A stretch of DNA of 64,000 bases from Candidatus Omnitrophota bacterium (GCA_023248155.1 JAHFFE010000005.1:29057-93056), one strand, 5' to 3'. Shown: positions 8,779-24,849, counted from the stretch's first letter. The notes: a model not told the origin generated them from the letters alone. Numbers and translations are program-made.

Positions 8779-8788
8779 AAGAGAAGCG

Positions 8789-10702
8789 ATGTCAAAACTG
8801 ATTGACCAGATTAATTCACCGGCCGATTTACGAAAATTGCGCCAGGATCAGATGCCGCAGGTGGCGCAGGAAATCCGCGAACTGATCGTTGAAAAGGTCT
8901 CCAAGTCCGGCGGGCATTTTGGCGGACCGATGGGCGCGGTGGACCTGGTCGTGGCGATGCATTACGCATTCAATACGCCGGAAGACAAATTGATCTGGGA
9001 TGTCGGTTATCAGGCTTACGCGCATAAAATCCTGACGGGGCGGCGCGACCGTTTTGGAACGCTGCGCCAGTGGCAGGGCATCTCCGGTTTTCCGCATTGC
9101 GAGGAAAGCCCCGAGCACGATATGTTTACGATCGGGCATGGCGGCACCTCTATTTCAACGGCGCTGGGTTTGGCGCGCGCGCGCGACCACCTGAAACAGA
9201 AACAGCAGATCGTCGCGATTATCGGCGATGGATCAATTCCGGAAGGGATGGCGCTCGAGGGTCTTAATCACGCGGGCCATCTCAAAACAAATATGCTGGT
9301 GATTTTGAACGACAACAACATGGCGATCGCACCGGCCGTCGGCGCGTTAACACACGCGTTCAACCGGATGATTGCCGACCCGATGTATAACCGCGTTCGC
9401 CGCGAAGTTCAGAACGCGGTTCAGAAAGTGCCGCGCGTTGGTTTCCGGATGATCCGCATGGCGAAACGGCTTGAAGAGTCGATGAAGAATTTATTGGTGC
9501 CGGGCGTTTTGTTTGAAGAGCTCGGGTTCCGTTATTTTGGACCGATCGACGGGCACAACATCGACGAGATGATCGAAGAGTTCCGCAACTTAAAAGATCT
9601 GCCGGGTCCGAAACTGCTGCATGTGCGCACTGTGAAGGGCAAGGGCTATGCGCATGCCGAGGCGCAGCAGTGGAAGTACCACGGCGTTACGCCGTTTGAT
9701 CCGCAGACCGGCGAAATTTTCAAGAAACCGGCCCCCGAAACGTTCACACAGCGATTCTCCAAAGTAATGGTCCGGCTCGGAAAGTCCGATCCGAAGATCG
9801 TGGCGATCACCGCGGCGATGCCCGATGGCACCGGCTTAGTCGATTTCTCGAAAGAACTGCCGGGACAATTTTATGATGTCGGCATGTGCGAACAGCACGC
9901 GGTTGGCCTGGCGTCCGGATTGGCCAAGGGCGGCATGAAACCGTTTGCCGTAATTTACTCCACATTTTTGCAGCGCGGATATGATCAGGTGATTCATGAC
10001 GCTTGCATTCAGAATCTGCCGGTCATTTTTACGATGGACCGCGCCGGCCTGGTTGGCGACGACGGCATTACGCATCACGGCGTTTTTGATATCGCTTATA
10101 TGCTGCCGCTTCCGCGCATGACTTTTATGGCGGCCAAAGATCTCGATGAACTTGAGGCGATGCTCGACTACTGCGCTCAATTTACCTCAGGCCCGATAGC
10201 GCTCCGTTATCCGCGCGGAACGATGCTGCGGTTTGATCCGGACTTGAAACTGACGCTGCCGGCGAAAACCGCGCCGATTGAACTGGGCAAGGCCGAGATT
10301 TTAGCGCGCGGTTCTGAGCTGGCGATCGTAGCGGTCGGCAGTATGGTTTATCCGGCGCTGGAAGCGGCGGCGCGATTATCCGCGAAAGGAATTTCCACGA
10401 CGGTGGTGAATGCCCGTTTCTTGAAGCCGATCGAGACCGAATTTTACGCGGCGCTGGCCAAAGAGCACCGCGCCATGCTGATTGTCGAGGAAGGGGTTCT
10501 TACCGGCGGTTTTGGCCCGAACTTGATGGCTCAATTATCCGGACAGGTCAACGGCACCGCGATGAACGCCATGGGAATTCCCGACAAGTTTTTTGAACAT
10601 GGCAAGCGCGAGATTTTACTGAATGAAGCGGGGCTGACGACCAATCATATCGAGCAGGCCGCCGAGCAATTACTCGACAGGAAGACGGCGTATGTTAGAT
10701 AG
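8789..10702 (+). CDS. dxs: 1-deoxy-D-xylulose-5-phosphate synthase
   Basis: 637 aa with a TPP-binding 'GDGSIPEGMALEGLNHAG' and a transketolase-like pyrimidine-binding domain and C-terminal domain. It overlaps the next gene by 11 nt. Confidence 0.9.
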   Translation: MSKLIDQINSPADLRKLRQDQMPQVAQEIRELIVEKVSKSGGHFGGPMGAVDLVVAMHYAFNTPEDKLIWDVGYQAYAHKILTGRRDRFGTLRQWQGISGFPHCEESPEHDMFTIGHGGTSISTALGLARARDHLKQKQQIVAIIGDGSIPEGMALEGLNHAGHLKTNMLVILNDNNMAIAPAVGALTHAFNRMIADPMYNRVRREVQNAVQKVPRVGFRMIRMAKRLEESMKNLLVPGVLFEELGFRYFGPIDGHNIDEMIEEFRNLKDLPGPKLLHVRTVKGKGYAHAEAQQWKYHGVTPFDPQTGEIFKKPAPETFTQRFSKVMVRLGKSDPKIVAITAAMPDGTGLVDFSKELPGQFYDVGMCEQHAVGLASGLAKGGMKPFAVIYSTFLQRGYDQVIHDACIQNLPVIFTMDRAGLVGDDGITHHGVFDIAYMLPLPRMTFMAAKDLDELEAMLDYCAQFTSGPIALRYPRGTMLRFDPDLKLTLPAKTAPIELGKAEILARGSELAIVAVGSMVYPALEAAARLSAKGISTTVVNARFLKPIETEFYAALAKEHRAMLIVEEGVLTGGFGPNLMAQLSGQVNGTAMNAMGIPDKFFEHGKREILLNEAGLTTNHIEQAAEQLLDRKTAYVR

Positions 10703-12632
10703 TACCGGCCTTCTTGAAAAAGAAGGTGTTTCTGTTTCTTCCTCTACGCTGAAGACCGCGATCACGCGCGTTACCCGCTTTCTGATGGATCAGCGCAAGC
10801 CGGACGGCCATTGGTGCGGTGAATTGGAAGCCGATACGACGCTGGAATCGGATACTGTCAAGATGTGGCATTTATTGGGCCGCGTCGATGCGGATCGCGA
10901 AAAGCGTTTGGTTGCCACGATTCTGAAACATCAAAATGCCGAGGGCGGCTGGCCGATCTACGCGGAGGGGCCGGCGGAACTGAATGCCACCGTGAAAGCC
11001 TATGTGGCGCTGCGGCTGGCCGGTTTTAATAATTCCGATCCGCGTCTGGTTCTGGCGAAAGAGGCAGTGCTTCGGCTTGGCGGGCTCGAGCGGATCAACA
11101 GTTTTGAAAAAACGTATCTGGCGCTGCTAGGTCTTTATCCGTGGAACCAGGTGCCGGCGCTTCCCGCCGAGATCATCTTTTTACCAAACTGGTTTGCGTT
11201 CAATATTTACGAAGTGGCCTACTGGTCCCGCACGATTTTAGTTCCGCTGATGGTGCTCTATTCGACCCGGCCCAAATGGGTTGAACTTGATTTTTCGGTT
11301 GATGAATTGTGGCAGGATCCTCGCCGCAAACAGGCGAAGATGACCAATTTTCAGAAGGGCGGAGCGGTTTGGCGGGTTTTCTTCCTGTTCTCTGATTGGA
11401 TGCTGCGGTTGCATGAAGCAGTACCGTTTAAACCGCTGCGCAAAGCCGCGCTTCGCCGCACCGATCGCTGGATGACGGACCGGTTGATGGAGACCGACGG
11501 TCTCGGCGCGATTTATCCGGCGATGATCAACGCTGTTTTCGCGCTGAAGGCGCTTGGTTATGGCGATGGCGATCCGGCGCTGGAACAGTCGATTCGTGAA
11601 GTGGAACGGCTTGAGCTGCCGGACGGTTCGGACGGTTTGAAATTACAGCCTTGTTTTTCGCCGGTCTGGGATACGGCGCTGGCGCTTTATATCGTCGGGA
11701 AAACGGCCGGGCGCGATGAAACGGCGTTGGAGCAAACCGCCGAATGGCTTCGGCAGCGTGAAATTCGCAGTTACGGCGACTGGCGCGTCAAGAACCGGAA
11801 GGCGCAGCCGGGCGGATGGGCGTTTGAGTACCGCAATCCTTTTTATCCCGACGTCGATGATTGCGCGCAGGTGTTGTTGGGTTTTCAATCACTCTATGGA
11901 AAAGCGCAGGCCGCTGCGTCGCCGGTGCATCAGCGTTCAATCACATGGATTCTCTCGATGCAGAACGATGACGGCGGGTGGGCCTCATTCGATAAAAATA
12001 ATAATTGTGAAGCGCTGAATCATTTTCCGTTTGCCGATCATAACGCGATGCTTGATCCGTCGTCCTGCGACATCACGGGGCGGATTCTGGAAATGTTTTC
12101 GGGGGCCGGGTTAACGACGCGGCATCCGCAGGTGCGGCGCGCCGTTGATTTTCTGCTGGCGCGTCAGGAGCCGGATGGAACCTGGTTCGGCCGCTGGGGC
12201 GTGAACTATATTTACGGAACCTGGCTGGCGCTGCGCGGACTTAAAAGCATCGGCATTGATTTGAATGAGCCGAGGTATCAGAAAGCGGGACAGTGGATTT
12301 TGAAACATCAGAATGCCGACGGCGGCTGGGGCGAAAGCTGCCGGTCGTACGATGATCCGTCATTAAAAGGGCAGGGTCCCTCGACGGCATCGCAGACGGC
12401 CTGGGCATTAATGGCGCTGATGTCGCTGGGGCTTCAGCAACTTCCGGAATTCCGGAAAGGGACGGACTTTTTGGTACGGACGCAGCAGGCCGATGGGAAC
12501 TGGGATGAATCCTGGTTTACCGGCACCGGCTTTCCGCGCGTTTTTTATCTTAAGTATCACCTATATCGGACTTACTTCCCCCTATTGGCTTTGGTGGAAG
12601 CCCAACAAGAACTCAAGGAGCAAGTAAACTAA
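10692..12632 (+). CDS. shc: Squalene-hopene cyclase
   Basis: 646 aa with multiple QW repeats ('[10 protein letters not shown]', '[10 protein letters not shown]', '[10 protein letters not shown]') and the catalytic 'DVDDCAQV' (DxDD) motif. Confidence 0.9.
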
Positions 12633-13756
12633 TGGCAATCGCATGGAGACAGGGATTATCGGTGGGCAGCTACATCTTCGGCCAGAAGCTGAAGGGCGTT
12701 GAAAAATTTCCATTGGTGTTAATGCTGGAGCCGTTGTTCCGGTGCAACCTCGAGTGCGCCGGCTGCGGAAAGATCCAGTACCCGGAAGATATTTTGAAGA
12801 AGCGGCTTTCGGCTCAGGAATGTGAAGATGCCGCCATGGAGTGCGGCGCGCCGATCGTTTCAATCGCCGGAGGGGAACCGCTGATCCACCCGGAGATGCC
12901 GGAGATCGTCGAGCGGCTCGTCAAGCGCAAGAAATTTGTTTATCTCTGCACGAACGCGGTTCTGCTCGCGCGCGAAATGAAGAAATACAAACCGTCGCCG
13001 TATTTCCGGTTCAGCATCCACCTCGACGGGCTGGAAGCGACGCATGACAAGTCGGTCTGCCGTAAAGGTGTCTTTAATCAGGCGATCGAAGGAATCAAGG
13101 CGGCGAAGGCGGCCGGGTTCACCGTTTCCACGAACACCACCATCTTCCTCGGCGCCGATCCCGGCGAATTCCGCCGGATGTTCGATCATTTGATGGATCT
13201 CGGCGTTGACGGCATGATGATTTCGCCCGGCTATCCGTACGAGAAAGCGCCGGACCAGCAGCATTTTCTGCAGCGCGAGCAGACGAAAGCGCTGTTCCGC
13301 CAGATTCTCGACAATGCCGATCCGCGCTGGCGCTTCAATCACTCCACGTTCTTCCTGGAGTTTTTGCAGGGTGAGCATGATTACCAGTGCACGGCTTGGG
13401 GCAACCCGACGCGCAATGTATTCGGATGGCAGAAGCCGTGTTATCTGATGAGCGACGGGTATGTCAAAACATTCAAAGAGTTGATGGAAGATACCAAGTG
13501 GGAAAATTACGGCACCGGCCGCGATCCGCGCTGTGCCGACTGCATGGTGCATTGCGGTTATGAAGCGACAGCCGTGATGGACGCGACCGCATCGGTGAAG
13601 AACATCATGCATACGATCCGGCCGTTTGGCTCAACGCGTTCCAAGGCGCCGGTCAGCTCCACCGAGGTTCCTCCTCCGCCGGCCCATTCTTCGTCGTCGG
13701 GACCGGTTCCGAATGTGACGCTGGAGTTTCAGCAGAAAAAGTCTTCGTCGGAATGA
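12632..13756 (+). CDS. hpnH: Hopanoid-associated radical SAM protein (adenosylhopane-forming HpnH-like)
   Basis: It has a '[10 protein letters not shown]' CxxxCxxC radical-SAM motif, and the start codon overlaps the shc stop ('taATGg'). The position directly after shc matches hopanoid clusters. Confidence 0.8.
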
Positions 13757-14259
13757 CGAAAACATCCGCCAATCCTGGATTGTCTCAGGATTGTCTTGAC
13801 GCGCTGCGGGCACAGCGGTTTAATTTCTTTTCCGGCGTGGCCGATTCGACACTGGCCTCGCTGATTGAACTGCTCTCGAACGATCCGCTCGGGTATGTTC
13901 CGGCGGCCCGTGAAGATCTGGCCATCGGAATGGCTTCCGGCGCTCATCTGGCCGGCCGCCGCGCCTGTGTGCTGATGCAGAATTCCGGCATCGGCTATTG
14001 CCTGAACGCGCTGACCTCGCTGAATATGATTTATAAAATTCCGCTGCTGCTGATTGTCGGTTACCGCGGTTACGAGGGCAAGGATGCCCCGGAACATTGG
14101 GTGATGGGCAAGCACTGCACGGCGCTGCTCGAGGAAATTGGCGTTAAGACGCTGGTTCCCGAGGCGGCCGATCTGCCGCGCGCGATCGAACAGGCTGCCG
14201 GTTGGATGAGCGGCAGTCAGCTTCCTGTGGCCGTTTTTGTGCGGCCGGGGATGCTCTAA
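13753..14259 (+). CDS. Phosphonopyruvate/sulfopyruvate decarboxylase-like TPP enzyme, alpha (N-terminal, pyrimidine-binding) subunit
   Basis: 168 aa. '[18 protein letters not shown]' and '[16 protein letters not shown]' match the TPP_enzyme_N fold of ComD/Ppd-type split decarboxylases. Confidence 0.6.
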
Positions 14260-14261
14260 TC

Positions 14262-14846
14262 ATGGTTCTTACTACACGGCAGGCGATTTTCGCAGTGGCG
14301 CGCCAGCTTACGAATCACGAGCGGGTAGTTTCCACTACCGGATATATTTGCCGCGATACGCATGCGGCCGGTGATCGTCCCGAAAATTTTTATATGATTG
14401 GATCGATGGGCATTGCGTCATCGACCGCGATGGGCATCGCGCTGGCTCAGCCGGGGGAAACCGTGGTGGTCTTCGACGGTGACGGCGCGGCGCTGATGGG
14501 CTTGGGCGCACTGCCGGCGATCGCGTCGGTAGCCCCTGAAAATCTGATCCATGTAGTCTTTGATAACGAAGCGTATGCATCGACAGGCCGTCAGCCGACC
14601 TATTCATCGTCGGTTGATTTGGCGGCATTGGCCCAGGCGGCCGGCTACCGGGTTGTCCGCAAGGTAGACACGGAAGCGGCATTGCTGAGCGCCTGGCAGG
14701 AAATTCGAAAACAGCGGGGACCGGTCTTTTTACTGGTGAAATGCGTTCCGGACGAGGGCGCCCCGATGGAACGGGTGGGGTTGGAGCCGGAAGCGATCAC
14801 AGCACGATTTATGGAGGCTATTCATGGTACGAATGAAAGATTCTAG
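14262..14846 (+). CDS. Phosphonopyruvate/sulfopyruvate decarboxylase-like TPP enzyme, beta (C-terminal, PP-binding) subunit
   Basis: It has the TPP-binding 'VVVFDGDGAALMGLGALP...N' motif. The start is placed at the ATG at 14262, which immediately follows the alpha-subunit stop; the tracked ORF starts at 14202. Confidence 0.65.
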   Translation: MVLTTRQAIFAVARQLTNHERVVSTTGYICRDTHAAGDRPENFYMIGSMGIASSTAMGIALAQPGETVVVFDGDGAALMGLGALPAIASVAPENLIHVVFDNEAYASTGRQPTYSSSVDLAALAQAAGYRVVRKVDTEAALLSAWQEIRKQRGPVFLLVKCVPDEGAPMERVGLEPEAITARFMEAIHGTNERF

Positions 14847-16137
14847 TCGGCGGGCGATCAAGCGGCGAATGAAACGCAGACGGTTCAAGCGGATCTCGAT
14901 TCAGCTCAAGCCATCGATGCGCGGTTCTGCCGGTAGAGGTTCTTACGCCAAGGGTTCGTCTTATTCGAAGAGTTCTTACGGCAAGTTTAAGGAACCGGTG
15001 GTTGCTCCGGTTCCGGTACCGGAACCGGTCGTGGCTCCTGTGCGCGCCGCGCCGCGCCGGCAAATTCTTTTATGCCCGGGTCCGGTCAATCTGACGCCGC
15101 ATGTGAAATCGGCGCTGGCAGGTCCGGATATCTGCCACCGCGAGAAAGAATTTTCATCGCTGCTGCAGTCGACACGCCTGAAATTGGTCCACGCGTTGGG
15201 CCTCGGTGACCGCTACACGGCCTGCCTCATTAACGGGTCAGGGACGGCGGCGCTTGAATCGGCCATCATGAGCTGTGTTGAGCCCGGCAAGAAATTGTTG
15301 GTGGTCAATAACGGCGTCTACGGATCGCGGCTGGCCCAGTTGGCGCGGCTTTACCAGATTCCGTTGCTGGAAGTCCGTTCTCCGCTGACGGAAACACCCG
15401 ATCTTTCGCGCGTGGCCGCTGTTTTGAAGCGTGAATCGTCGATCGGTACCGTGGCCGTCGTGCATCATGAAACATCGACCGGCATGCTGAACCCGGTTGA
15501 AGAGATCGGCGTTCTGGCCAAGAAGTATCGCAAGCGGTTTCTGGTCGACGCGATCAGCAGTTTGGGCGCCGAGAAACTTGATTTTACGAAAGCGCATATC
15601 GGTTTCTGCGTCGGTTCCGCCGGAAAAGCACTGCACGGTGCGCCCGGCCTTTCGTTCGTGCTGTTGTCGCAGGAAGAAGCGGCGCGTGTTGTGAAACTGA
15701 AACCGCGCGCGCTTTATCTGAACCTGGGAATTCAGCTGCGCGCCCAGGAATCGGGTGAGCCGTTGTTTACGCCGGCCGTTCCGCTTTATATGGCGTTTCA
15801 CGCGGCGCTCGAGGAATTAATCCGTGAAGGGATCAAGGGCCGCATCGTCAAATATCAGCAGCGGTCGGTCTTTCTGCGCCAGGGCTTCAAGAAGCTCGGT
15901 TTGAAATTCCTGCTCGATGAAAAACAGATGTGCCATTCATTGACGGCGATGTGGATGCCGGCTGGCAGATCGTACGACGCGGTTCACAACGCGCTGCGCA
16001 AGCAGGGGTTTGTGATTTACGCGGGTCAGAGCGAGCTGAAAGGTAAAATTCTCCGGATCGCCCATATGGGCCAGTTGTTCCAGGGTGATTTGGCGGAATT
16101 ACTCAAAGCGATGAAGGCGGTCTTAGCCGAATCGTAA
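14824..16137 (+). CDS. Class-V (AGXT/PhnW-like) pyridoxal-phosphate aminotransferase. The start is uncertain, because the first ~75 codons are basic and low-complexity.
   Basis: 'ILLCPGPVNLTPHVKSALAG' resembles the 'LLTPGP' N-terminus of 2-aminoethylphosphonate:pyruvate and serine-pyruvate aminotransferases. In-frame GTG codons at 15031 and 15040 and an ATG at 14917 are alternative starts. Confidence 0.7.
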   Translation: MVRMKDSSRRAIKRRMKRRRFKRISIQLKPSMRGSAGRGSYAKGSSYSKSSYGKFKEPVVAPVPVPEPVVAPVRAAPRRQILLCPGPVNLTPHVKSALAGPDICHREKEFSSLLQSTRLKLVHALGLGDRYTACLINGSGTAALESAIMSCVEPGKKLLVVNNGVYGSRLAQLARLYQIPLLEVRSPLTETPDLSRVAAVLKRESSIGTVAVVHHETSTGMLNPVEEIGVLAKKYRKRFLVDAISSLGAEKLDFTKAHIGFCVGSAGKALHGAPGLSFVLLSQEEAARVVKLKPRALYLNLGIQLRAQESGEPLFTPAVPLYMAFHAALEELIREGIKGRIVKYQQRSVFLRQGFKKLGLKFLLDEKQMCHSLTAMWMPAGRSYDAVHNALRKQGFVIYAGQSELKGKILRIAHMGQLFQGDLAELLKAMKAVLAES

Positions 16138-16139
16138 AC

Positions 16140-17126
16140 GTGCCGCCATCTTCATTGGGGTGGAGTCGTCCATGGATGCGCTGGGTCGGGTTAGTTATCG
16201 GCCTGGCGCTCTTTGCCTGTGTTCTGGCTGCTTCCGATTTACGCGGTGTTGGCACGCTGCTACTTGAATTCCGCTGGCGGTTCTTCCTGGTTTTCCTCTT
16301 TTATGCCTTTATTTTCGCGCTCGATACCTGGGGATGGAAATACGCGTTTCATCCGGATCAGCAGCGGAAAGTTTCCTGGTCCCAATTATTCCGTGTCCGG
16401 CTGGCCGGTGAGTCGATCAATTATGTGACGCCGGGGGCTTCCATCGGCGGGGAACCGGTCAAAGCGGTGATTCTTTCGAAACGGTACGGAATTCCGATGC
16501 CGGAAGGGATGGCCTCGGTAGTGGTGGCCAAAACGACGCTGGCTTTCAGCATGCTCTTTTTCTCGCTGACGGGTATTGTTTTGGCTTTGTTTTTGTATCC
16601 GCTTCCCGGTTTGCTCAAACGATGGCTCCTCGGTGTGATGCTGGCGCTTAGCGGCATGATGGTGCTGTTTGTTTTGGCGCAATTTCTCAAGCCGTTTCAG
16701 CGAGGCAGCCGGTTTTTTTCCTGGATTCATCCGCGCTGGTTCGCTTCATTGCAGGAAAAAATGCAGTTGTGGGACGGAGCGATTCTCCGTTTTTATCGTC
16801 AATCGCCAGCCAGTATTATCCGGTCGTTTCTATTTCATTTTCTGGGATGGCTCGCCGGCGCGGCCGAGGTTTTTCTGATTTTTAAGTTGCTGCACTTGCC
16901 GATTTCCATTCCAGCCGCTTTTTGCCTCGAAGCGCTCTGGGTTCTGTTGCGCAGCGGCGCGTTTATGATTCCGGCTTCGCTGGGAGCCAGTGAAGGGTTC
17001 ATGATATTGGTTTGCACGGGGCTGGGCATTTCTTCGGTGATCGGGTTGACGGTGGGATTGATCCGGCGTGTTCGTGAAATGGTCTGGATGGGTCTCGGTT
17101 TATTGGAATTCTCACGCGATGGCTGA
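16140..17126 (+). CDS. Polytopic membrane protein of the lysyl-PG-synthase-TM/UPF0104 family (HpnL-like)
   Basis: 328 aa with about 8 predicted TM helices. It sits in a hopanoid-cluster context immediately upstream of hpnA, and its stop overlaps the hpnA start ('ATGGCTGA'). Confidence 0.55.
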   Translation: MPPSSLGWSRPWMRWVGLVIGLALFACVLAASDLRGVGTLLLEFRWRFFLVFLFYAFIFALDTWGWKYAFHPDQQRKVSWSQLFRVRLAGESINYVTPGASIGGEPVKAVILSKRYGIPMPEGMASVVVAKTTLAFSMLFFSLTGIVLALFLYPLPGLLKRWLLGVMLALSGMMVLFVLAQFLKPFQRGSRFFSWIHPRWFASLQEKMQLWDGAILRFYRQSPASIIRSFLFHFLGWLAGAAEVFLIFKLLHLPISIPAAFCLEALWVLLRSGAFMIPASLGASEGFMILVCTGLGISSVIGLTVGLIRRVREMVWMGLGLLEFSRDG

Positions 17127-18117
17127 TAAACAAGCGGTTTTTATAACAGGGGCCACCGGTTTCGTGGGCGGGCATCTGGCGGCCCAGTTGGTCCGGCGCG
17201 GAGAAAAGGTGCGCGTCTTGTGCCGCAAGAACAGTTCGTTGAGAAATCTTGAGGGGCTTGCAGTCGAGCCGGTTTATGGCGACTTGCAGGACCAGGAATC
17301 GCTGGTCCAGGGAATGCAGGGCTGCCGCCAGGTTTATCATGTCGCGGCCGATTACCGGCTTTGGTCACCCGATCCGTCCGAACTTTATTTGAATAATTTA
17401 ATCGGCACGCGCAACATACTGCAGGCGGCCCGCCGTACCAAAATCCAGAGGATGGTCTACACATCGACGGTGGGGGCGCTTGGATTTACCTCGAATGGAA
17501 CTCCGGCCGATGAAGAAACGCCTGTTTCTCTGTCCGATATGATCGGCCATTACAAGCGGTCCAAATTTATGGCCGAAGTGGAAGTCCAGGCTGCGGCCGC
17601 CGGCGGGTTTCCGGTCGTGATTGTTAATCCGTCAACGCCGGTAGGATCGGGTGACTTGAAACCGACGCCGACCGGACAGATCATTGTTCAGTTTTTAAAC
17701 GGCAAGATGCCGGCCTATATGGATACCGGCCTGAACCTGGTGGATGTGGAGGATGTGGCGCAGGGCCATCTGTCGGCGATGGAAAAAGGCAAGGTTGGTG
17801 AGCGGTATATTTTAGGCAATCGTAATTTGACGCTGCACCAGATTCTAGAAATTTTGTCACAGATCAGCGGGCGGCCCGTTCCAAAGGTGAAGCTTCCATG
17901 GGTGGGCGCCATGGGTATCGCCGCGGTTTGTACCGGTGTGAGTTCCGTTACGAAACAAACGCCGCTGGTTTCTCTCGAGGCGGCCCGGATGTCGCGCAAG
18001 AAAATGTTCTTTAGTCAGGCCAAGGCCGTGCGTGATCTTGATTTGCCGCAGACACCGGTGGAAAAGGCGTTGGAAAAAGCGGTGCGCTGGTTTCGCGATA
18101 ACGGCTACGCCAAATGA
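17119..18117 (+). CDS. hpnA: NAD-dependent epimerase/dehydratase, hopanoid-associated sugar epimerase HpnA-like
   Basis: It has a Rossmann 'ITGATGFVGGHLA' motif and a YxxxK-type SDR fold. The start is placed at the internal ATG at 17119 (the tracked ORF starts at 17068). Confidence 0.75.
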   Translation: MADKQAVFITGATGFVGGHLAAQLVRRGEKVRVLCRKNSSLRNLEGLAVEPVYGDLQDQESLVQGMQGCRQVYHVAADYRLWSPDPSELYLNNLIGTRNILQAARRTKIQRMVYTSTVGALGFTSNGTPADEETPVSLSDMIGHYKRSKFMAEVEVQAAAAGGFPVVIVNPSTPVGSGDLKPTPTGQIIVQFLNGKMPAYMDTGLNLVDVEDVAQGHLSAMEKGKVGERYILGNRNLTLHQILEILSQISGRPVPKVKLPWVGAMGIAAVCTGVSSVTKQTPLVSLEAARMSRKKMFFSQAKAVRDLDLPQTPVEKALEKAVRWFRDNGYAK

Positions 18118-18289
18118 TAACTAGGGGTGCCGGGCATGGGGACCGTGGACACGCTCGGAATCGACTACCGATTCCGTCGCTCTGTCTGCGGCCTTGCCGA
18201 AGAACATTTGGATTTGGCCTCCGCCAAGGTCCACTTGCCCCATATCCCGGCCCGCCTCTTCGCTTTTATTCTCAGGCATGGGTATCTGA

Positions 18290-18910
18290 TTGACCGCCGA
18301 TCCCATTTTGATTGTTGCGGCGGTTTCTCAGGAAATGCGCGGGTTTCGTCCATCGGATGGAGTTCGTATATTAGTAACCGGGATGGGCCGTGCGCGCGCC
18401 AAAAGCCGGTTGGAATCGTATTTGCGCGGAACAGCCGTTTCCCGGATACTCTCCGTCGGGTTTTGCGGCGGGCTGGATCCATTACTAAAGGCGGGTCAGC
18501 CGGTTTGGGTCGAGAGCGTTGTAGGGCCGGGCGGGGCCCGTAGACAGGCAGCGGCCTGGAGCGGTAAAATAAACGGGTCTCTGCCGGGAACCACTCTGCT
18601 GACGGTCGACCGTCCTGTCCGAACCGCTTTGGAGAAAACCGCGTTGCGTACGCAGTTTGGCGCCGGTATCGTCGACATGGAAACAGCCGCGATAGCTGAA
18701 GTCGCAGCCGATCAGGGTATTCCCTGGAACGGGCTGCGCGTCATTCTGGATCCGGCAGCCCAGCCGCTGGAATTTGACTCCGCGCGCGCCGCGCTGTGGG
18801 CGCTGCGCCATCCATCGGGCTGGAAACGGTTAATCAATTTTTTGGAGCAATTGCAGGCTGCCGGCGATACGCTGGCCAAACATTTAAACAATATTACGGG
18901 ACCGTCTTAA
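18290..18910 (+). CDS. hpnG: PNP/MTA-nucleosidase-family phosphorylase (HpnG-like adenosylhopane nucleosidase)
   Basis: 'IVDMETAAIAEVAADQGIPWNGLRVILD' matches the conserved DME(S/T)AA...ISD core of the PNP_UDP_1 family, and the gene sits in hopanoid context. Confidence 0.6.
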   Translation: MTADPILIVAAVSQEMRGFRPSDGVRILVTGMGRARAKSRLESYLRGTAVSRILSVGFCGGLDPLLKAGQPVWVESVVGPGGARRQAAAWSGKINGSLPGTTLLTVDRPVRTALEKTALRTQFGAGIVDMETAAIAEVAADQGIPWNGLRVILDPAAQPLEFDSARAALWALRHPSGWKRLINFLEQLQAAGDTLAKHLNNITGPS

Positions 18911-18926
18911 ACAAGGAGAACCTCAG

Positions 18927-19931
18927 ATGGATTTGGATCGCGCCGCCTTATTGATTCAGTCGGAGTTTTCGTTTTTGCAGAGGGTTCATGCCCAGTGGAG
19001 TTTGACCGAGGGACCGCAGGATATGGAGCTGGTCGCGCATGCGCTGCGCGTGCTGTTGCACATGGGCAAGGCCGGTGAATCGCTTCCTGAATATCTGGCG
19101 CTGGTTAAGACGCAGCATACCGACGGCGGATGGGGCCGTGAATCATCCGAGCCGGAATCAGCCGCCTGGGTTTCGGCGTTTTGCGGCCTGATGTTGATCC
19201 GCGCCAACACATCGCTCAAGAACGAAGAGATCGAGAAGTCACTCTGGAGGTCGATCGACTATTTCCTGCAGCAGCAGTCTGCCGACGGCCGCTGGAAAGA
19301 CAGCGAGTGGGGCGACCTCGATACCACCTCGCACCCGGTCAGCTTTTTCAATGTCGTGCTGGCGCTGGGCACTCCCAAGATGAAAGACGCGGTCCGCGCT
19401 TCATGGCGTAAAGGACTGCGGTTCATTCTCGATAATCAGTCGGAAGACGGCGGCTGGTACGATCCGGTTTTTCAGCCGTCCGGCGTTGAAACAACGGCGC
19501 ACCTCGTGCAGGATGCCGTCATCGCGTCGCTGACGCTGCCCGACGGGCTTCCGGTCCGCCCGGCCTGCGAAAAAGGGCTGAACTGGATTTTAAATCATCA
19601 GGATGCCGACGGGTCATGGGATGAAAAGAACATGGACCACACGATGGACTGTACCCGTTCCACGATGTTAATTTCGCGATTGCTGCGGGCCGAAGAAAAA
19701 GCCCGGCCGGCCATTGAAAAAGCGATCGAGTGGACCGTGAAGTTCAAAAATGCCGAAGGATGGCCCGATTTTCCGGGCATGGAGACCAACCTGGAGCGGA
19801 CCTGCGACGGCCTTGATGTTTTGCTGAAGTATGAAGCGTGGCGTCAGGGAGATCCGATGGAATCGGCGCGCCGGTGGGGTTATGTGGCCGGTGAACCGGA
19901 ATTTCTGAAGGGTGCTTTAGCCGGCGTTTAA
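18927..19931 (+). CDS. Prenyltransferase/squalene-cyclase-repeat (alpha/alpha-toroid) protein, function unknown
   Basis: 334 aa with repeated 'QxxDGxW' motifs ('QQSADGRWKD', 'NQSEDGGWYD', 'NHQDADGSWDE') like the QW repeats of SHC/terpene cyclases, but only about half the length of SHC. Confidence 0.6.
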   Translation: MDLDRAALLIQSEFSFLQRVHAQWSLTEGPQDMELVAHALRVLLHMGKAGESLPEYLALVKTQHTDGGWGRESSEPESAAWVSAFCGLMLIRANTSLKNEEIEKSLWRSIDYFLQQQSADGRWKDSEWGDLDTTSHPVSFFNVVLALGTPKMKDAVRASWRKGLRFILDNQSEDGGWYDPVFQPSGVETTAHLVQDAVIASLTLPDGLPVRPACEKGLNWILNHQDADGSWDEKNMDHTMDCTRSTMLISRLLRAEEKARPAIEKAIEWTVKFKNAEGWPDFPGMETNLERTCDGLDVLLKYEAWRQGDPMESARRWGYVAGEPEFLKGALAGV

Positions 19932-20276
19932 ATGAGCGAACCAAAACAGCCGGTTGCTTCGGAGTCGGAACTTCCCGAAGGATCTTCCAAGCTGGTCACT
20001 GTGGACGGTAAGGAAGTGGCGCTGATTCGTGCCGAGGGCGCACTCTACGCCGTTGGTAACCGCTGTCCGCATCGCAGCGGGCCGCTGGTCCGCGGAAAAG
20101 TAGAACACGTCCCGGAGAATCCGGCCGATCCATCCTCCAAAACAACGCTGGCGGTTCGCTGCCCAATTCACGGCTGGTTGTTCGAACTTTCGACGGGCCG
20201 TTGTTTAACGCGGCCCAGCGCTTCGGTTCCAACTTATCCGGTTGAATGCGATAACGGACAGATTTGCATTGGTTAG
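19932..20276 (+). CDS. Small Rieske [2Fe-2S] protein (NirD-like)
   Basis: It has 'CPHRSGPL' and 'CPIHGW' CxH...CxxH Rieske ligand boxes. It is 114 aa. Confidence 0.75.
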   Translation: MSEPKQPVASESELPEGSSKLVTVDGKEVALIRAEGALYAVGNRCPHRSGPLVRGKVEHVPENPADPSSKTTLAVRCPIHGWLFELSTGRCLTRPSASVPTYPVECDNGQICIG

Positions 20277-21630
20277 TATTATTCTGGCGGCCGGCGTCGG
20301 TAAACGGATGGGGGCAACTGCCGCGCCAAAATGTCTTTCATCCGTCGGCGGGCAAACGCTGCTTCACCGCACAATTGATTCTCTCCGTCTGTCCGGTGTT
20401 TCAGAAATCGTCATTGTCGTTGGTTATGAAAAAGAGCAGGTTATCAAAGAAGCCCGCGCTTGCGCGCACGGCACCCACATTCAGTTTCTGGTTAATGATC
20501 GTTACCGCGAAGGGGCGATCCTTTCTTTGTATGCGGCCCGAAAATTCCTCGACCGGCCTGTTCTGATTATGGACGCCGACGTCCTGTGTCCTCCCTCGGC
20601 ATACGAACGGTTGATCCGTTCCGTTCACGGCAACGCGCTTTTGGTAGATGGTTCGTCTTCCGATACAGGCGAGGAGCAGCTGGTGTTTGGAAAGGCGGAC
20701 CGTGTTTTCCAGATTACGAAGCGGCCGGATGAATCGTTGAAGCGGTCGATGGAATCGTACGGTGAATCAATTGGGTTCCTTAAGTTGTCGGCGGACGCGG
20801 CCCAAACGCTGGGCACGCTGCTGGATCAGAAAATAAACGCCGGCATTGTTTCCATCGAACATGAGCAGGCTTATCCGGACCTGTTTGAGCGGCACGCGGT
20901 CGGCTGTGAGCAGGTGGATGGAATTCCCTGGACTGAAATTGATACGCCCGAGGATCTGCTCCGCGCTCAGCAGGAAATTCTTCCGTTATGGACCGCATCT
21001 CCGTGCCTGAATCGGCAGATTTCGGCCTTGTTTTTTCCGGTCATTGTTCCTCTTCCTCTGACGCCGAACCAATGGACGCTGATTGCGATGCTGCTTGGTC
21101 TGTCGTCGCTGATTTTCTTTGCGTGGGGTAGTCTTTGCAGCGATTTAACCGGTGCACTGTTGTTTCAAGCGTTTTACATCGTCGATAACTGGGACGGGGA
21201 AGTGGCCCGCCGTAAGAACCTTTCGTCACGGTTCGGCGGCTGGTTTGATTTTCTATCCGACGGCCTGATTCAGATCGGACTGCCGCTGTCGTTTGCCTGG
21301 GGGCTTAGCCGCACAGGCGCTGCTGATTGGATATGGATCGCCGGCGTTGCCGGCGCTCTAGGGGTATTTCTCGATTTTATCGCGACCGGCTGGGCCAAGG
21401 CGCGCGGTTTCGGCCCTGCCATTTTTGGTGATTCGCTGCGGCGGGGCAATCATTCTGGGTTTCGTTACTGGATCGGGGTGAATATGACCAATGAAAATTT
21501 TTCATGGATTGTTCTGATCGCCATGGCGTTCAACGCGAAATGGGCGCTGTTGCTGGCGATGTCGATCGGCTGCCAGGTCTATTGGATCCGGTTTTTGTCG
21601 TCGGAATGGCGTCGACTTAAGTTACAATAG
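20242..21630 (+). CDS. Bifunctional nucleotidyl(cytidylyl)transferase / CDP-alcohol phosphatidyltransferase fusion
   Basis: The N-terminus 'IILAAGVGKRMG' is a sugar/alcohol-phosphate nucleotidyltransferase P-loop. The C-terminal membrane domain 'DNWDGEVARRKNLSSRFGGWFDFLSDG' matches the CDP-alcohol phosphotransferase D-G-x2-A-R...G-x3-D-x3-D signature. The architecture resembles IPCT/DIPPS fusions. The true start may be the TTG at 20269. Confidence 0.75.
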   Translation: MNAITDRFALVSIILAAGVGKRMGATAAPKCLSSVGGQTLLHRTIDSLRLSGVSEIVIVVGYEKEQVIKEARACAHGTHIQFLVNDRYREGAILSLYAARKFLDRPVLIMDADVLCPPSAYERLIRSVHGNALLVDGSSSDTGEEQLVFGKADRVFQITKRPDESLKRSMESYGESIGFLKLSADAAQTLGTLLDQKINAGIVSIEHEQAYPDLFERHAVGCEQVDGIPWTEIDTPEDLLRAQQEILPLWTASPCLNRQISALFFPVIVPLPLTPNQWTLIAMLLGLSSLIFFAWGSLCSDLTGALLFQAFYIVDNWDGEVARRKNLSSRFGGWFDFLSDGLIQIGLPLSFAWGLSRTGAADWIWIAGVAGALGVFLDFIATGWAKARGFGPAIFGDSLRRGNHSGFRYWIGVNMTNENFSWIVLIAMAFNAKWALLLAMSIGCQVYWIRFLSSEWRRLKLQ

Positions 21631-21634
21631 TCTT

Positions 21635-22855
21635 ATGAGCGATCCACAGATGTTTCGCAAGGGGTTTGGTCTCAAAGATCAGGTGCGCGATGATCTGGAA
21701 CAGGATTATCGCAGCATGATCGTAGAGACAGTCCGCACCCGCGGCAACCGGCTTCAGGTCGGTGATCTAACCTTTTTAATTGCCAAGGAATTCGGTTTCT
21801 GTTACGGCGTCGAGCGGGCCGTCGACTATGCCTATGAAACCCGCAAGCAATTCCCCGAGAAAAATATTTATCTCACTACCGAGCTGATCCATAATCCGCG
21901 CGTGAATAATTGTCTGCGCCAGATGGGCATCGGCTTTTTAAACGGCCCGGGACCCCAGGATAAGAAGATCGGCGAGCTGAACGCGCAGGATGTTGTAATC
22001 ATTGCCGCGTTCGGAACGCAAGTCCAGGAGATGGAACAGCTTAAGGCCAAAGGATCCATTTTGGTGGATGCCACCTGCGGATCGGTGGTGCTGGTCTGGA
22101 AGCGCGTCGAGCAGTACGCGAAAGACGGATTTACGGCGGTGGTGCACGGCAACTACCGGCATGAAGAAACCCGCGCCACAGTTTCACGCGCCACGCAGTT
22201 TCCCCAGGGCAGATATCTGGTTGTCTGGGATAAGGACGAAGCGAAGCTGGTGTGCGAGTATATCCGGACCGGCAAAGATAAGGAAGCGTTCATGGCCCAC
22301 TTTGCTTCCAAAACTTCCGAAGGGTTTGATCCCGATAAAGACCTTTTACGCGTCGGCGTGGCCAACCAGACCACGATGCTCTCCAGCGATTCGCTCGAGA
22401 TCGCGCAGATGCTTAAAGAGGCGATGGCTGAGCGTTACGGGTCTGAGCAGCTGGCCGGTCATTTTCGTACTTTTGATACCATCTGCAGCGCCACGCAGGA
22501 TCGCCAGGACGCGATGATGGAATTGGTTAAGAACCATCTGGATATCGTCATTGTGATCGGCGGTTTTAACTCCAGCAACACCAGCCATCTTTCTGAAATC
22601 GCCACGCAGCACGCGCCGACGTATCATATTGATGATTCCAACTGCATTTTGTCCGATAAAGATATTCGCCATAAGCCGGTAGGGAAGCCCGTCTCCATTG
22701 TGACTTCCGGATGGCTGCCGACTTCCGGGCCGCTGACCATCGGTGTTACGGCCGGCGCTTCCACGCCGAACCGCGTTATCGGCGATGCCATTGAGCGGAT
22801 CATTCAACTTCGCGGTTATTCCACGGATCAGCTCAAATCAGCGCTCTCTTCTTAA
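21635..22855 (+). CDS. ispH: 4-hydroxy-3-methylbut-2-enyl diphosphate reductase (long form)
   Basis: 'FGFCYGVERAV' and the 'NSSNTSHL' conserved IspH/LytB motifs are present. An ispH paralogue is typical of hopanoid clusters. Confidence 0.85.
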   Translation: MSDPQMFRKGFGLKDQVRDDLEQDYRSMIVETVRTRGNRLQVGDLTFLIAKEFGFCYGVERAVDYAYETRKQFPEKNIYLTTELIHNPRVNNCLRQMGIGFLNGPGPQDKKIGELNAQDVVIIAAFGTQVQEMEQLKAKGSILVDATCGSVVLVWKRVEQYAKDGFTAVVHGNYRHEETRATVSRATQFPQGRYLVVWDKDEAKLVCEYIRTGKDKEAFMAHFASKTSEGFDPDKDLLRVGVANQTTMLSSDSLEIAQMLKEAMAERYGSEQLAGHFRTFDTICSATQDRQDAMMELVKNHLDIVIVIGGFNSSNTSHLSEIATQHAPTYHIDDSNCILSDKDIRHKPVGKPVSIVTSGWLPTSGPLTIGVTAGASTPNRVIGDAIERIIQLRGYSTDQLKSALSS

Positions 22856-22913
22856 GAACCGCTTATTCTGTTAACCACCCTTGACAAAGCCGTACCGCAT
22901 CAACCACACTTCT

Positions 22914-23187
22914 AGAGCCGGTTTCACAACCTCCCGTGGCCGCGCTTAAGCAGAATGACGAGCCAGACAAGGCGCGAGGAGGCCGGCGTAGTCAAAGTAC
23001 TACGGCAACGACGAGCAACGCAGTATGGCGAAGTCAGGATGTTAAGCCCGAAGGGTTTCGGCGGCAGGCCGCCGTCTCCTGCGGCGCTCTTCCTCGGCGG
23101 ATTGCTGTGAATACGCCGTCGTCATCGCTTCTTGGATACGGCGGGGCCTGGCGCTCGAAACGCGGTTCACGCGAGGTTGTGAAACCG
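22914..23187. other. Perfect 20-bp long-range inverted repeat enclosing about 235 bp of GC-rich non-coding DNA between ispH and gspE
   Basis: 'agagccggtttcacaacctc' (22914-22933) is the reverse complement of 'gaggttgtgaaaccggctct' (23168-23187). An internal 'ggcggcaggccgcc' hairpin is present. Confidence 0.5.
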
Positions 23188-23208
23188 GCTCTTAGTTAAG
23201 GGGGATGA

Positions 23209-24840
23209 TTGATGTCGGTCAAGCGCAGTGCCGTTCGAATTGGAGACCTTCTGATTAAAGAGGGGGTTATTACCTCTGATCAGTTGGAGCAGGCTTTGGC
23301 GGCCCAGAACCGTTCAGAAAATGAGCCGCTGTGCGCTGCCTTGTCCCGGCTTAATATTCTTTCCGAAGAAAAATCGCTTCCTATTCTTGCCCGCCAATTG
23401 GGCATGGAAATCATTTCTGTTGATCAGCAAAAAATTTCAGCCGATTTATTAAAGCTGGTTCCCGCGCGCATCGCGACTCGCTATCATATTTTGCCGGTTT
23501 CCCGGGAAGGACAGTCGCTGCGGGTGGCGACAGCGGACCCTCTCAATATCAAGGTTTTCGATGAGCTTCAGATGCTGACGCATTGTACGATTCTTCCGGT
23601 ACTGGTATTGGGACAGCAGTTGACCGAGGCTATCCGTCACTATTACGGGGTTGGCGCCGATATGGTCGAATCGATGGTGGACGATGGAGAACTCGCGAAG
23701 GCCGCTGAACTAAGAGAAGCCGCTGAAGATCTCGACAAGATCGGCGGTGAAGCGTCGACAGTCAAATTCGTCAACCAGCTTTTATTGGAAGCGGTGCGTG
23801 ATCGCGCGACCGATGTTCACCTGGAACCCTATGAAAAACGGCTGCTGATCCGCTACCGGATTGACGGTATTTTGTACGAGGTTCCTGTTTCCGCCGACAT
23901 GAAACGATTTCATTCAGGCATTGTTTCCCGCGTTAAAGTGATGTGCAATCTGAACGTGGCCGAGCATCGGCTTCCGCAGGATGGCCGCACCAAGGTCAAG
24001 GTGGGCGGCCGTGATTTGGATTTGCGCGTGTCCATCTTGCCCGCTGCGTTCGGCGAGTCGGTCATGATCCGTTTGCTGTCCACGAATGTGGTCTTAGGTC
24101 TGGAACAGATCGGGTTGCTGCCGGACCACCTGGCCCTGTTGGAAAAAATGGTGGTCAAACCGCACGGCATTGTTTTCGTGAGCGGACCCACCGGCGCCGG
24201 AAAAACAACCACGCTGTATGCCGCTCTGGCGCGCATGAACGACCGCAAGCGCAAGGTCATTACGATTGAAGATCCGATTGAATATTTAATGCCGGGCATC
24301 ACCCAGATTCAGGTCCATCCGAAAATTGATTTTACATTCGCGGCCGCGCTGCGTTCCGTGCTGCGCCATGATCCGGATGTGGTGATGCTCGGTGAGGTGC
24401 GCGATTTTGAAACCGCGGAGACTGCCATTCGGACCGCGCTGACCGGGCACCTCGTTTTTTCAACGCTGCATACGAACGACGCGGCCGGCTGCATGACCCG
24501 ATTGCTTGATATGGGCATCGAGCCGTACCTGGCGGCTTCTTCGTTGGAATGCGCGATCGCGGTTCGGTTGGTTCGGTTGATTTGTCCCGAGTGCCGCGCG
24601 AAAGGGTGTCCCCAGTGCCGGCAGACCGGCTATAAAGGCCGAACCGGTATTTTTGAGTTTCTGGTTCTCGATGAGGATATCCGGGCATTGGTCCTGCGCC
24701 GGGCATCCGCCGGTGAAATTACAAAGATGGCTTGCTCAAAAGGAATGCGCACCCTTCGTGAAGATGGGATGGAAAAAGTTCGGCGCGGCCTGACCACGAT
24801 TGAAGAAGTGATGCGCGTTACCGAAATGGACGCTTCTTAA
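23209..24840 (+). CDS. gspE: Type II secretion ATPase GspE (PilB/GspE family) with N-terminal T2SSE_N domain
   Basis: Walker A 'GPTGAGKTT', Asp box, His box and the tetracysteine 'CPECRAKGCPQC' are present. It is 543 aa. Confidence 0.9.
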   Translation: MMSVKRSAVRIGDLLIKEGVITSDQLEQALAAQNRSENEPLCAALSRLNILSEEKSLPILARQLGMEIISVDQQKISADLLKLVPARIATRYHILPVSREGQSLRVATADPLNIKVFDELQMLTHCTILPVLVLGQQLTEAIRHYYGVGADMVESMVDDGELAKAAELREAAEDLDKIGGEASTVKFVNQLLLEAVRDRATDVHLEPYEKRLLIRYRIDGILYEVPVSADMKRFHSGIVSRVKVMCNLNVAEHRLPQDGRTKVKVGGRDLDLRVSILPAAFGESVMIRLLSTNVVLGLEQIGLLPDHLALLEKMVVKPHGIVFVSGPTGAGKTTTLYAALARMNDRKRKVITIEDPIEYLMPGITQIQVHPKIDFTFAAALRSVLRHDPDVVMLGEVRDFETAETAIRTALTGHLVFSTLHTNDAAGCMTRLLDMGIEPYLAASSLECAIAVRLVRLICPECRAKGCPQCRQTGYKGRTGIFEFLVLDEDIRALVLRRASAGEITKMACSKGMRTLREDGMEKVRRGLTTIEEVMRVTEMDAS

Positions 24841-24849
24841 CAGCCCGCC

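Follow-up and report, generated by a model that had tools for sequence, protein, structure and literature searches.

A hopanoid operon of Candidatus Omnitrophota interleaved with a predicted aminoethylphosphonate-type, CMP-activated head-group module

Bacterial membranes contain hopanoids as major lipids, and geological hopane biomarkers derive from them. Predicted phosphonolipid clusters, in turn, form the largest class of phosphonate gene clusters, and none has been characterized (PMC8942020); for those in bacteria, the product is uncharacterized and the transferase is not known (PMC8942020, PMC6697681). Genes for 2-aminoethylphosphonate (AEP) have been reported beside squalene synthase/cyclase genes in Nitrosococcus (GCF 731), with a "possible phosphonoterpene" as product (PMC8942020, PMC7285500), and in acidophilic Acetobacteraceae, with an "undiscovered terpene-phosphonate" (PMC8776678). 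Here, we describe a 64,000-nt stretch of a Candidatus Omnitrophota bacterium genome (GCA_023248155.1 JAHFFE010000005.1:29057-93056; hereafter, the window), in which a hopanoid operon is interleaved with AEP-type genes and with a gene that fuses a cytidylyltransferase domain (NT) to a cytidine diphosphate (CDP)-alcohol phosphotransferase domain (CDP-OH). These genes probably constitute an AEP-type membrane head-group module that activates its head group with cytidine monophosphate (CMP). The fuller reading, in which the activated phosphonyl head group is moved onto a hopanoid acceptor, is one that we hold tentatively, at slightly less than an even chance.

Among described systems, the comparison is with the "Group 1" phosphonolipid clusters (Burkholderiales_CDP-OH; Yu et al. 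2013 via Li & Horsman 2022, PMC8942020). As far as the cluster descriptions in that source extend, these have the same AEP core of phosphonopyruvate decarboxylase (Ppd) and AEP transaminase, a PntC-type cytidylyltransferase beyond the mutase-fused one, CDP-alcohol-phosphotransferase "phospholipid" genes, and a product that was never characterized. Against the same descriptions, the window differs in that the cytidylyltransferase is fused to the transferase, Ppd is split, and an alpha-ketoglutarate oxygenase is missing; the window has no mutase, and in its relatives the mutase motif is non-canonical. HpnL-like, cyclase-like, and Rieske genes are added, and the module is interleaved with hopanoid genes. 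The Nitrosococcus and Acetobacteraceae clusters, which we compared by description only, likewise place AEP biosynthesis genes next to squalene genes with a phosphonoterpene speculated, but they are proteobacterial, their phosphoenolpyruvate (PEP) mutase (Ppm) passed the canonical-motif filter, and they were reported as antiSMASH/BiG-SCAPE adjacency. The Pnt-type phosphonolipid module is therefore already known as a predicted, uncharacterized kind, and speculation about phosphonoterpenes predates this work. What is unusual here is the fused NT::CDP-OH protein, the split decarboxylase, the interleaving with hopanoid genes across phyla, and the association both with a non-canonical mutase clade and with cyclase-like and Rieske proteins.

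Gene calls were made from an open reading frame (ORF) listing with Pfam and NCBIfam scans, and NCBIfam/TIGR scores were judged against curated cutoffs. The operon is a plus-strand array spanning 7951-22855, in the order ispA-dxs-shc-hpnH, then decarboxylase alpha and beta, transaminase, and HpnL-like, then hpnA-hpnG, then cyclase-like, Rieske, and the NT::CDP-OH fusion, and lastly ispH. From ispA to ispH, neighboring genes are spaced by -59 to +16 bp, with a single exception of 172 bp before hpnG, and because of this tight packing the array forms one or two transcription units. A promoter and terminator scan of 7500-23500 gave the same result as shuffled sequence. An original prediction, made from the sequence of the window, had named decarboxylase, aminotransferase, Rieske, and fusion genes outside the canonical hopanoid set, and all the genes it named are present where it had placed them. 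It had put the extra genes between shc-hpnH and hpnA-hpnG-ispH; they form two blocks flanking hpnA-hpnG rather than one insert. Its list, correct in its entries, had missed two members, the HpnL-like gene (16140-17126) and a 334-aa cyclase-like gene (18927-19931). The features are as follows.

7951-8778, plus strand: polyprenyl diphosphate synthase (IspA-like), first gene of the operon, 10 bp upstream of dxs (PF00348, 161 bits)
8789-10702, plus strand: dxs, 1-deoxy-D-xylulose-5-phosphate synthase (PF13292, 373 bits)
10692-12632, plus strand: shc, squalene-hopene cyclase (SQHop_cyclase_N, 353 bits; SQHop_cyclase_C, 459 bits)
12632-13756, plus strand: hpnH, adenosylhopane-forming radical S-adenosylmethionine (SAM) enzyme (TIGR03470, 536 bits, cutoff 225)
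13753-14259, plus strand: split Ppd-like thiamine diphosphate (TPP) enzyme, alpha subunit with PYR domain (PF02776, TPP_enzyme_N; TIGR03297, 117.8 bits)
14262-14846, plus strand: split Ppd-like decarboxylase, beta subunit with PP domain (TPP_enzyme_C; TIGR03297, 184.5 bits)
14824-16137, plus strand: class-V aminotransferase resembling AEP:pyruvate transaminase (TIGR03301 PhnW-AepZ, 328.8 bits)
16140-17126, plus strand: HpnL-like flippase-domain membrane protein, LPG_synthase_TM (PF03706, 121 bits; TIGR03476, 169.8 bits)
17068-18117, plus strand: hpnA, hopanoid-associated short-chain dehydrogenase/reductase (TIGR03466, 476 bits, cutoff 367.65)
18290-18910, plus strand: HpnG-like nucleosidase/phosphorylase (PF01048; TIGR03468, 98 bits, cutoff 187)
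18927-19931, plus strand: single-domain alpha/alpha-toroid protein of terpene-cyclase fold ("shcL"), 334 aa (partial SQHop_cyclase_C match)
19932-20276, plus strand: small Rieske [2Fe-2S] protein, NirD/ferredoxin type (PF13806, PF00355)
20269-21630, plus strand: fusion of a PntC/LicC-type cytidylyltransferase to a CDP-alcohol phosphotransferase (PF12804, NTP_transf_3; PF01066, CDP-OH_P_transf)
21635-22855, plus strand: ispH (LytB), last gene of the operon, 4 bp after the fusion gene (PF02401, 234 bits)

Membership in a hopanoid (hpn) cluster follows from the two Pfam matches of the squalene-hopene cyclase and from HpnH and HpnA, which both score above their cutoffs. HpnG and HpnL (169.8 bits vs 195.65) fall below theirs; both are best hits, and their positions in the cluster are conserved, with the HpnG-like gene at the same place in relatives. 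The hpnA model match begins at residue 23, and the true start of the gene is probably near 17130. The 172 bp between hpnA and hpnG (18118-18289) are the sole sizeable gap in the operon, and an overlapping 138-aa ORF at 18127-18543 had no family match.

To place the operon among its relatives, 17 marker proteins were mapped on 63 species-representative loci, which make up four groups, A to D. The closest homologues of the fusion come from metagenome-assembled genomes (MAGs) of Candidatus Omnitrophota. Group A comprises close Omnitrophota, with fusion proteins 49-56% identical to that of the window and the same gene order; some of these loci have an extra stand-alone 220-aa CDP-OH transferase after the aminotransferase. 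Group B comprises distant Omnitrophota (32-38% identity), in which the order is shc-hpnH-Ppd alpha/beta-transaminase-NT-CDP-OH-HpnL-hpnA-ispH-hpnG, the NT and CDP-OH proteins are unfused, and no shcL or Rieske gene lies within 10 kb. Group C, from Binatia, other "delta" lineages, Thermodesulfobacteriota, and Chlamydiae, has mutase-like::PntC-Ppd-transaminase-NT::CDP-OH, usually with an HpnL-like gene nearby. Group D consists of seven alphaproteobacterial loci (L063-L069), with a CDP-OH transferase and an HpnL-like gene between a bona fide hpnN (958 bits) and hpnC. Finally, a Rokubacteria MAG (L080:1-21668, JACQWB010000215.1) carries sqs-hpnA-hpnG-hpnH on one strand and, on the other, shc-mlaEFDC-mutase-like::PntC-Ppd (unsplit)-transaminase-NT-CDP-OH (391 aa)-HpnL-like-MIPS-hpnN. 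The genes singled out by the original prediction are thus conserved in syntenic hopanoid clusters, and the prediction passed the refuting condition that it had set itself, their absence from such clusters. They also form independent loci without hopanoid genes.

Two further observations concern individual groups. In some group B loci, a 286-aa ORF with no Pfam match lies between hpnH and decarboxylase alpha (L058:7033-7893; also L049, L050, L057, and L059), with 85-89% identity among its carriers, far above the apparent between-group conservation of neighbor genes. The group D arrangement is of a Rhodospirillales type, for example L065:7194-12663, with the order hpnN-225-aa CDP-alcohol phosphotransferase-HpnL-like-hpnC and without cytidylyltransferase or AEP genes.

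The two subunits of the decarboxylase match Ppd better than sulfopyruvate decarboxylase. The alpha subunit scores 117.8 bits on the Ppd model TIGR03297 vs 108.8 on ComD (TIGR03845, cutoff 147.95), and the beta subunit 184.5 vs 172.3 on ComE (TIGR03846, cutoff 221.5). Each half covers the matching half of the Ppd model, and their scores sum to 302 bits, with the single-chain cutoff at 312.5. The TPP-binding motif of the beta subunit is intact (GDGAALMG...FDNEAY), and the alpha subunit has the PYR-domain motif, with its glutamate, as AAREDLAIG. The alpha gene overlaps the end of hpnH by 4 bp; the beta ORF opens at 14202, and its likely ATG is at 14262, 2 bp past the alpha stop codon. No coenzyme-M (com) or sulfolactate genes were found among the neighbors in the window by the Pfam and NCBIfam scans. 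The transaminase is a near miss on TIGR03301 (cutoff 360.8), and the five solved structures that match it best are AEP transaminases without exception (1M32, 206 bits; 9KK8, 9KKA, 6PD1, and 7E7G), with its pyridoxal phosphate (PLP) lysine in GSAGK aligning with SSANK of 1M32. The original prediction had contrasted this class-V enzyme with the class III HpnO of canonical hopanoid synthesis, which is beside the point, as the enzyme belongs to the AEP trio. A role as an HpnO substitute for aminobacteriohopanetriol was ruled out, because orthologues occur in AEP loci without hopanoid genes and always beside the decarboxylase. An N-terminal extension of about 77 residues (14824-15054) precedes the PhnW-aligned region of the transaminase; judged by protein length, it looks to be kept in group A (425-437 aa) and is absent in group B, Chlamydiae, and Rokubacteria (360-368 aa).

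A mutase-like partner for these enzymes is found in the relatives. Eleven group A loci have a 550-aa PEP-mutase-like::PntC gene, in reverse orientation, between the fusion and ispH, and every sufficiently long Binatia locus has one too. Five group A loci are without it at that place, as in the window; L010 has exactly the architecture of the window. In one MAG, the fusion gene (L016) and a mutase-like::PntC-ispH pair (L074) lie on different contigs, which shows that the mutase can be encoded outside the cluster. A neighbor-joining tree of the group A fusion proteins is star-like, and single versus repeated loss of the mutase gene is not visible in it. The decarboxylase and transaminase are intact in the window, in the other four mutase-less group A loci, and in all of group B, and are 60-70% identical within group A. 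Being intact without a local mutase, they would therefore draw their substrate from a gene elsewhere or from another route.

The fusion protein, started at TTG 20269, is database protein P0001. Its PF12804 match scores 64.5 bits, and its best structure and model match over both domains is IPCT-DIPPS (4MND); the NT domain can further be aligned to the CMP-AEP synthase PntC (6PD1) and to LicC (1JYK), and the C-terminal domain to AF2299. The CDP-OH motif D-x2-DG-x2-AR-x8-G-x3-D-x3-D is complete, with D306, D309, G310, A313, R314, G323, D327, and D331 invariant in 12 homologues. Hydrophobic segments are confined to residues 271-432, in the C-terminal half. In a library of 1.84 billion representatives, 103 clusters match the fusion at E <= 1e-30, of which about ten are full-length fusions and many others stand-alone proteins of ~245 aa; in others, the NT domain is combined with a class-V transaminase or a CDP-OH transferase, before or after it in each case, or with a TagF-like transferase. 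On sequence grounds, the NT domain belongs with the cytidylyltransferases that Rice et al. (PMC6697681) describe as phosphonyl-tailoring. One of these, Tde1415 PntC-AEPT of Treponema denticola (6PD1; Rice et al. 2019, PMC6697681), is a PF12804 cytidylyltransferase shown to make CMP-AEP and is fused to another AEP-pathway enzyme; it aligns with both the NT domain and the transaminase of the window. It differs in that its fusion partner is the transaminase rather than a transferase and in that the downstream Pnt transferase is not known there. Of its amine-contacting residues, Glu196 has a conserved equivalent in the window (IEHEQ), and Glu104 is replaced by Asp, as in LicC. IPCT/DIPPS shares the two-domain architecture, a cytoplasmic cytidylyltransferase feeding a fused six-helix CDP-alcohol phosphotransferase; the window differs in its LicC/PntC-type NT domain, in having no inositol-phosphate synthase, and in its lipid/phosphonate rather than osmolyte context. 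Activation of phosphoribosylhopane by the NT domain was considered and set aside, since its close relatives all act in small-molecule phosphonate or phosphocholine contexts.

From these genes we can postulate a pathway. By analogy with the Lic/Pnt and Kennedy pathways, the module should make AEP, activate it to CMP-AEP, and transfer the phosphonyl group to an alcohol. Phosphonopyruvate would be supplied by the PEP-mutase-like::PntC enzyme, encoded within the cluster in relatives and presumably outside the window here. The split Ppd-like enzyme would convert it to phosphonoacetaldehyde, and the class-V transaminase would turn this into AEP or a close analogue. The cytoplasmic N-terminal domain of the fusion may then join AEP and cytidine triphosphate (CTP) to form CMP-AEP, from which the fused phosphotransferase domain would move the aminoethylphosphonyl group to a membrane-bound alcohol, releasing CMP, and the adjacent HpnL-like flippase-domain protein may handle the product. 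The candidate acceptor is the polyol side chain that HpnH, HpnG, and HpnA build, either bacteriohopanetetrol (BHT) or ribosylhopane, and the predicted product would be an AEP-bacteriohopanepolyol. For the AEP ester of BHT, we calculate the formula C37H68NO6P and an [M+H]+ ion near m/z 654.486. The original prediction had likewise joined an amino-alkyl-phosphonate pathway to nucleotidyl activation and CDP-alcohol-type transfer, and this core of it is supported. Its novelty holds for the variant seen here, and a "phosphonoterpene" or "terpene-phosphonate" had already been speculated on (PMC8942020, PMC7285500, PMC8776678).

We infer that a hopanoid polyol is the most likely acceptor on several grounds. 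In two deep Omnitrophota clades, hpnH, hpnA, and hpnG are interspersed with the AEP genes; the module has been placed independently inside the hopanoid cluster of Rokubacteria; alphaproteobacterial hopanoid clusters contain the CDP-OH/HpnL pair; and the CDP-OH domain of the window groups with those of groups A, B, and D, while its NT domain is nearer to Binatia. By identity, the NT domain is 48% identical to Binatia vs 36% to group B. The CDP-OH domain is 39% identical to Chlamydiae, 33% to group B, about 33% to the alphaproteobacterial hopanoid-cluster enzymes, and 28% to Binatia, where it is detectable in 7 of 22 loci. In a simple neighbor-joining tree of CDP-OH domains, built on about 200 columns and without support values, the Binatia and Rokubacteria domains are separated from those of groups A, B, and D, with which the stand-alone group A paralogue is placed.

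The HpnL-like protein has several hydrophobic segments, and almost every related locus encodes it beside the CDP-OH transferase. Two recent hopanoid surveys list HpnA and HpnL as proteins of unknown function, and their text makes no mention of phosphonates or CDP-alcohol transferases. Proteobacterial hpn clusters resemble the window in encoding a flippase-domain membrane protein, which in the seven alphaproteobacterial loci adjoins a CDP-OH transferase homologous to the window domain; they differ in that the window protein is below the HpnL cutoff (170 vs 196) and in that they are without AEP genes. An independent census of gene neighborhoods, in the supplement of one of the two surveys, points the same way, with CDP-alcohol phosphatidyltransferase family members counted 1409 times within 20 ORFs of 3662 shc loci, more often than hpnG (1398) or hpnN (1333), though oversampled genera may inflate these counts (preprint 10.1101/2025.07.29.667474, Table S8). 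The same table lists an NT+CDP-OH fusion twice near shc loci, and PEP mutase and Ppd correlate with SHC in Gammaproteobacteria (Table S7); the text of that preprint discusses neither the transferase and fusion counts nor the PEP mutase and Ppd correlations.

Several observations weigh against this pathway, and some of them bear on its phosphonate chemistry. As the original prediction had said, there is no PEP mutase in the window (tblastn with the relatives' PEP-mutase-like::PntC enzyme over all 64 kb), and no mutase-like gene lies within 10 kb of any of the 16 group B loci. All three AEP-core proteins score under equivalog cutoffs. The mutase-like domain of the relatives scores 273 bits on TIGR02320 (cutoff 319.55), and its loop reads ED[A/S/N]xFPK[R/K/Q]CS, not the diagnostic EDKxxxxxNS (23 of 23 locus sequences and 120 of 120 best database homologues); phosphonopyruvate hydrolase departs from mutase at the same Asn position (KDTS). 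The closest solved relatives of this domain are true PEP mutases (5UNC, 272 bits; roughly 50% identity by alignment inspection), and from its sequence the Cys clade likely has mutase activity. The absence of a mutase gene and the sub-cutoff scores would suit a route independent of PEP mutase, in which the Ppd-like enzyme acts on a phosphorylated 2-oxoacid, such as 3-phosphohydroxypyruvate, on the way to phosphoethanolamine, CDP-ethanolamine, and a phosphate head group; so would the Asp at the Tde-PntC Glu104 position, as in LicC, which is a phosphate-ester enzyme. We regard this route as improbable, with 60-70% identical orthologues standing beside PEP-mutase-like::PntC in 11 close relatives as well as in all Binatia loci of sufficient length, and with one MAG simply having its mutase-like gene on another contig. 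We also know of no precedent for such a decarboxylation by a Ppd-like enzyme. The sulfonate branch of the original prediction fares worse. It would have a ComDE-type sulfopyruvate decarboxylase and the transaminase make taurine or a related sulfonate for a sulfonolipid, which fits the two-subunit layout, the sub-threshold ComD/ComE hits, and the correlation of TIGR03846 with SHC in the Planctomycetes-Verrucomicrobia-Chlamydiae (PVC)/Omnitrophota column of the preprint (10.1101/2025.07.29.667474, Table S7). It is barely credible all the same: both subunits score lower on ComD/ComE than on Ppd, no coenzyme-M or sulfolactate genes are nearby, the transaminase is of AEP type, and the relatives have a PEP-mutase-like gene and an unsplit Ppd. 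Cytidylylation of a sulfonate is impossible, as a cytidylyltransferase needs a phosphorus-containing substrate, and the phosphonate branch is clearly to be preferred.

Other observations bear on the acceptor. The module of mutase-like::PntC, Ppd, AEP-type transaminase, NT, CDP-OH transferase, and HpnL-like protein is an autonomous unit in several phyla, because independent loci without hopanoid genes occur in Binatia, "delta" lineages, and Chlamydiae. The group C flanks are without shc or hpnH, and Binatia are mostly without hpnH at all, so a hopanoid acceptor is not required by the module. The tree on which the grouping of CDP-OH domains depends is of the simple kind described above, and in it the Rokubacteria transferase falls with the Binatia type despite its hopanoid-cluster setting. 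The closest characterized CDP-OH relatives (DIPPS, AF2299, and the phosphatidylinositol-phosphate [PIP] synthases) take soluble polyol-phosphate acceptors. To our knowledge, no phosphorus-containing hopanoid has been reported; literature searches that paired hopanoid with a phosphonate term turned up none, and searches on "hopanoid" with "phosphonopyruvate decarboxylase," or on the motif string, returned nothing past known phosphonate papers. The main rival is accordingly an ordinary phosphonolipid, in which CMP-AEP serves diacylglycerol, another glycerolipid, or a ceramide-type alcohol to give an AEP analogue of phosphatidylethanolamine, and the hopanoid neighbors are a co-regulated membrane-lipid island. 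Diacylglycerol is the classic substrate of Kennedy-type CDP-alcohol phosphotransferases. This rival has the stand-alone loci and the rarity of hpnH in Binatia in its favor, together with the fact that predicted clusters with Ppm::PntC, Ppd, AEPT, a second PntC, and CDP-OH are already known as the commonest phosphonate cluster type (PMC8942020). We nevertheless think it less likely than a hopanoid acceptor, since in the two deep Omnitrophota clades the genes are interleaved with, beyond merely adjacent to, hpnH/hpnA/hpnG, since they also lie inside the Rokubacteria hopanoid cluster, and since the CDP-OH domain of the window is nearer to alphaproteobacterial hopanoid-cluster transferases than to the domains of stand-alone AEP loci. 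The fusion could also act as IPCT/DIPPS does, making a soluble phosphono- or phosphodiester, as an osmolyte or cell-surface precursor, via a soluble polyol phosphate. Its best model and structure matches (IPCT-DIPPS, AF2299, and archaetidylinositol- and phosphatidylinositol-phosphate synthases) and the myo-inositol-1-phosphate synthase (MIPS) gene of the Rokubacteria cluster agree with this. It is quite improbable, because the fusion scores 129 bits on the IPCT/DIPPS model NF041135, far under the cutoff of 580, which indicates shared architecture and not membership; because no inositol-phosphate synthase homologue occurs in the window or in the Omnitrophota loci; and because a flippase-domain protein and hopanoid or lipid genes constantly accompany it.

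The mutase-like enzymes have consequences beyond the operon. PGAP labels the relatives' proteins as "isocitrate lyase/PEP mutase family" and nothing finer, and the motif filter of pepM censuses (PMC6697681) would discard this large Cys clade. Because these enzymes fail the filter, environmental phosphonate potential may be under-counted in soil and groundwater phyla. A mutase-like::PntC gene with the Cys loop lies at L004:11368-13020 (minus strand), with homologues in L009, L013, L014, L017-L020, L023, L025-L027, L031-L044, L055, L060, L070, L073, L074, L078, and L080.

The cyclase-like and Rieske genes accompany mutase-like::PntC, in group A around the fusion gene. At 70-83% identity among Omnitrophota, the 334-aa cyclase-like protein is the product of the most conserved gene of the cluster. 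Its AlphaFold2 (AF2) model (pLDDT 94) is a single alpha/alpha toroid, with no hydrophobic segment in the protein, and Foldseek matched it to domains of class II terpene cyclases, among them the monodomain MstE and 8PAK/8PAJ, entries of 345 aa (TM 0.6-0.67). Against solved structures, a profile search aligned only QW-type repeats. By sequence, its invariant DLDTT aligns with the DLDTT of the N-terminal region of Alicyclobacillus acidocaldarius SHC (chain residues 61-114), which we take to be the gamma domain, and not with DxDD. The Rieske protein has its ligands (CPH...CPIH), and its gene is always paired with shcL. This association hints at further terpenoid chemistry tied to phosphonate enzymes. 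Isolated trios of mutase-like::PntC, shcL, and Rieske were also observed on large ENA contigs of 2.3-3.1 Mb (L070:8239-11366 and L073:8227-11328), with the decarboxylase, transaminase, and transferase not nearby, and three Binatia AEP loci (L033, L036, and L055) contain this trio within them. Taken to its widest extent, the hopanoid reading would have the operon make the first phosphorus-containing hopanoid, an aminoethylphosphonyl-bacteriohopanepolyol; the CDP-OH and HpnL pair, which is widespread but overlooked in hopanoid clusters of Omnitrophota, Rokubacteria, and Alphaproteobacteria, would attach and flip phospho- or phosphono- head groups on hopanoids, and the C-P bond would come from Cys-clade PEP-mutase-like enzymes working with the monodomain cyclase-like and Rieske proteins. 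In this extended form we find it doubtful.

Elsewhere in the window, a 2618-aa ORF with no Pfam match at E <= 1e-5 lies directly upstream of the isoprenoid/hopanoid operon (23-7879). Downstream of the operon is a type II secretion operon (23209-32653), directly followed by four tandem giant subtilases (32822-54809; 2160, 1570, 2158, and 1314 aa), which bear FG-GAP, Ig, cadherin, PKD, and fn3 repeats.

Collectively, the operon and its relatives provide a concrete, testable link between the hopanoid and phosphonolipid fields, with a candidate transferase (NT::CDP-OH), a candidate partner (HpnL-like), and a predicted product mass. Homologous CDP-OH/HpnL pairs occur in alphaproteobacterial MAGs, and genetics would be possible if cultivable Alphaproteobacteria carry the pair. 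The operon points to a still undescribed phosphorus-containing hopanoid or phosphonolipid.

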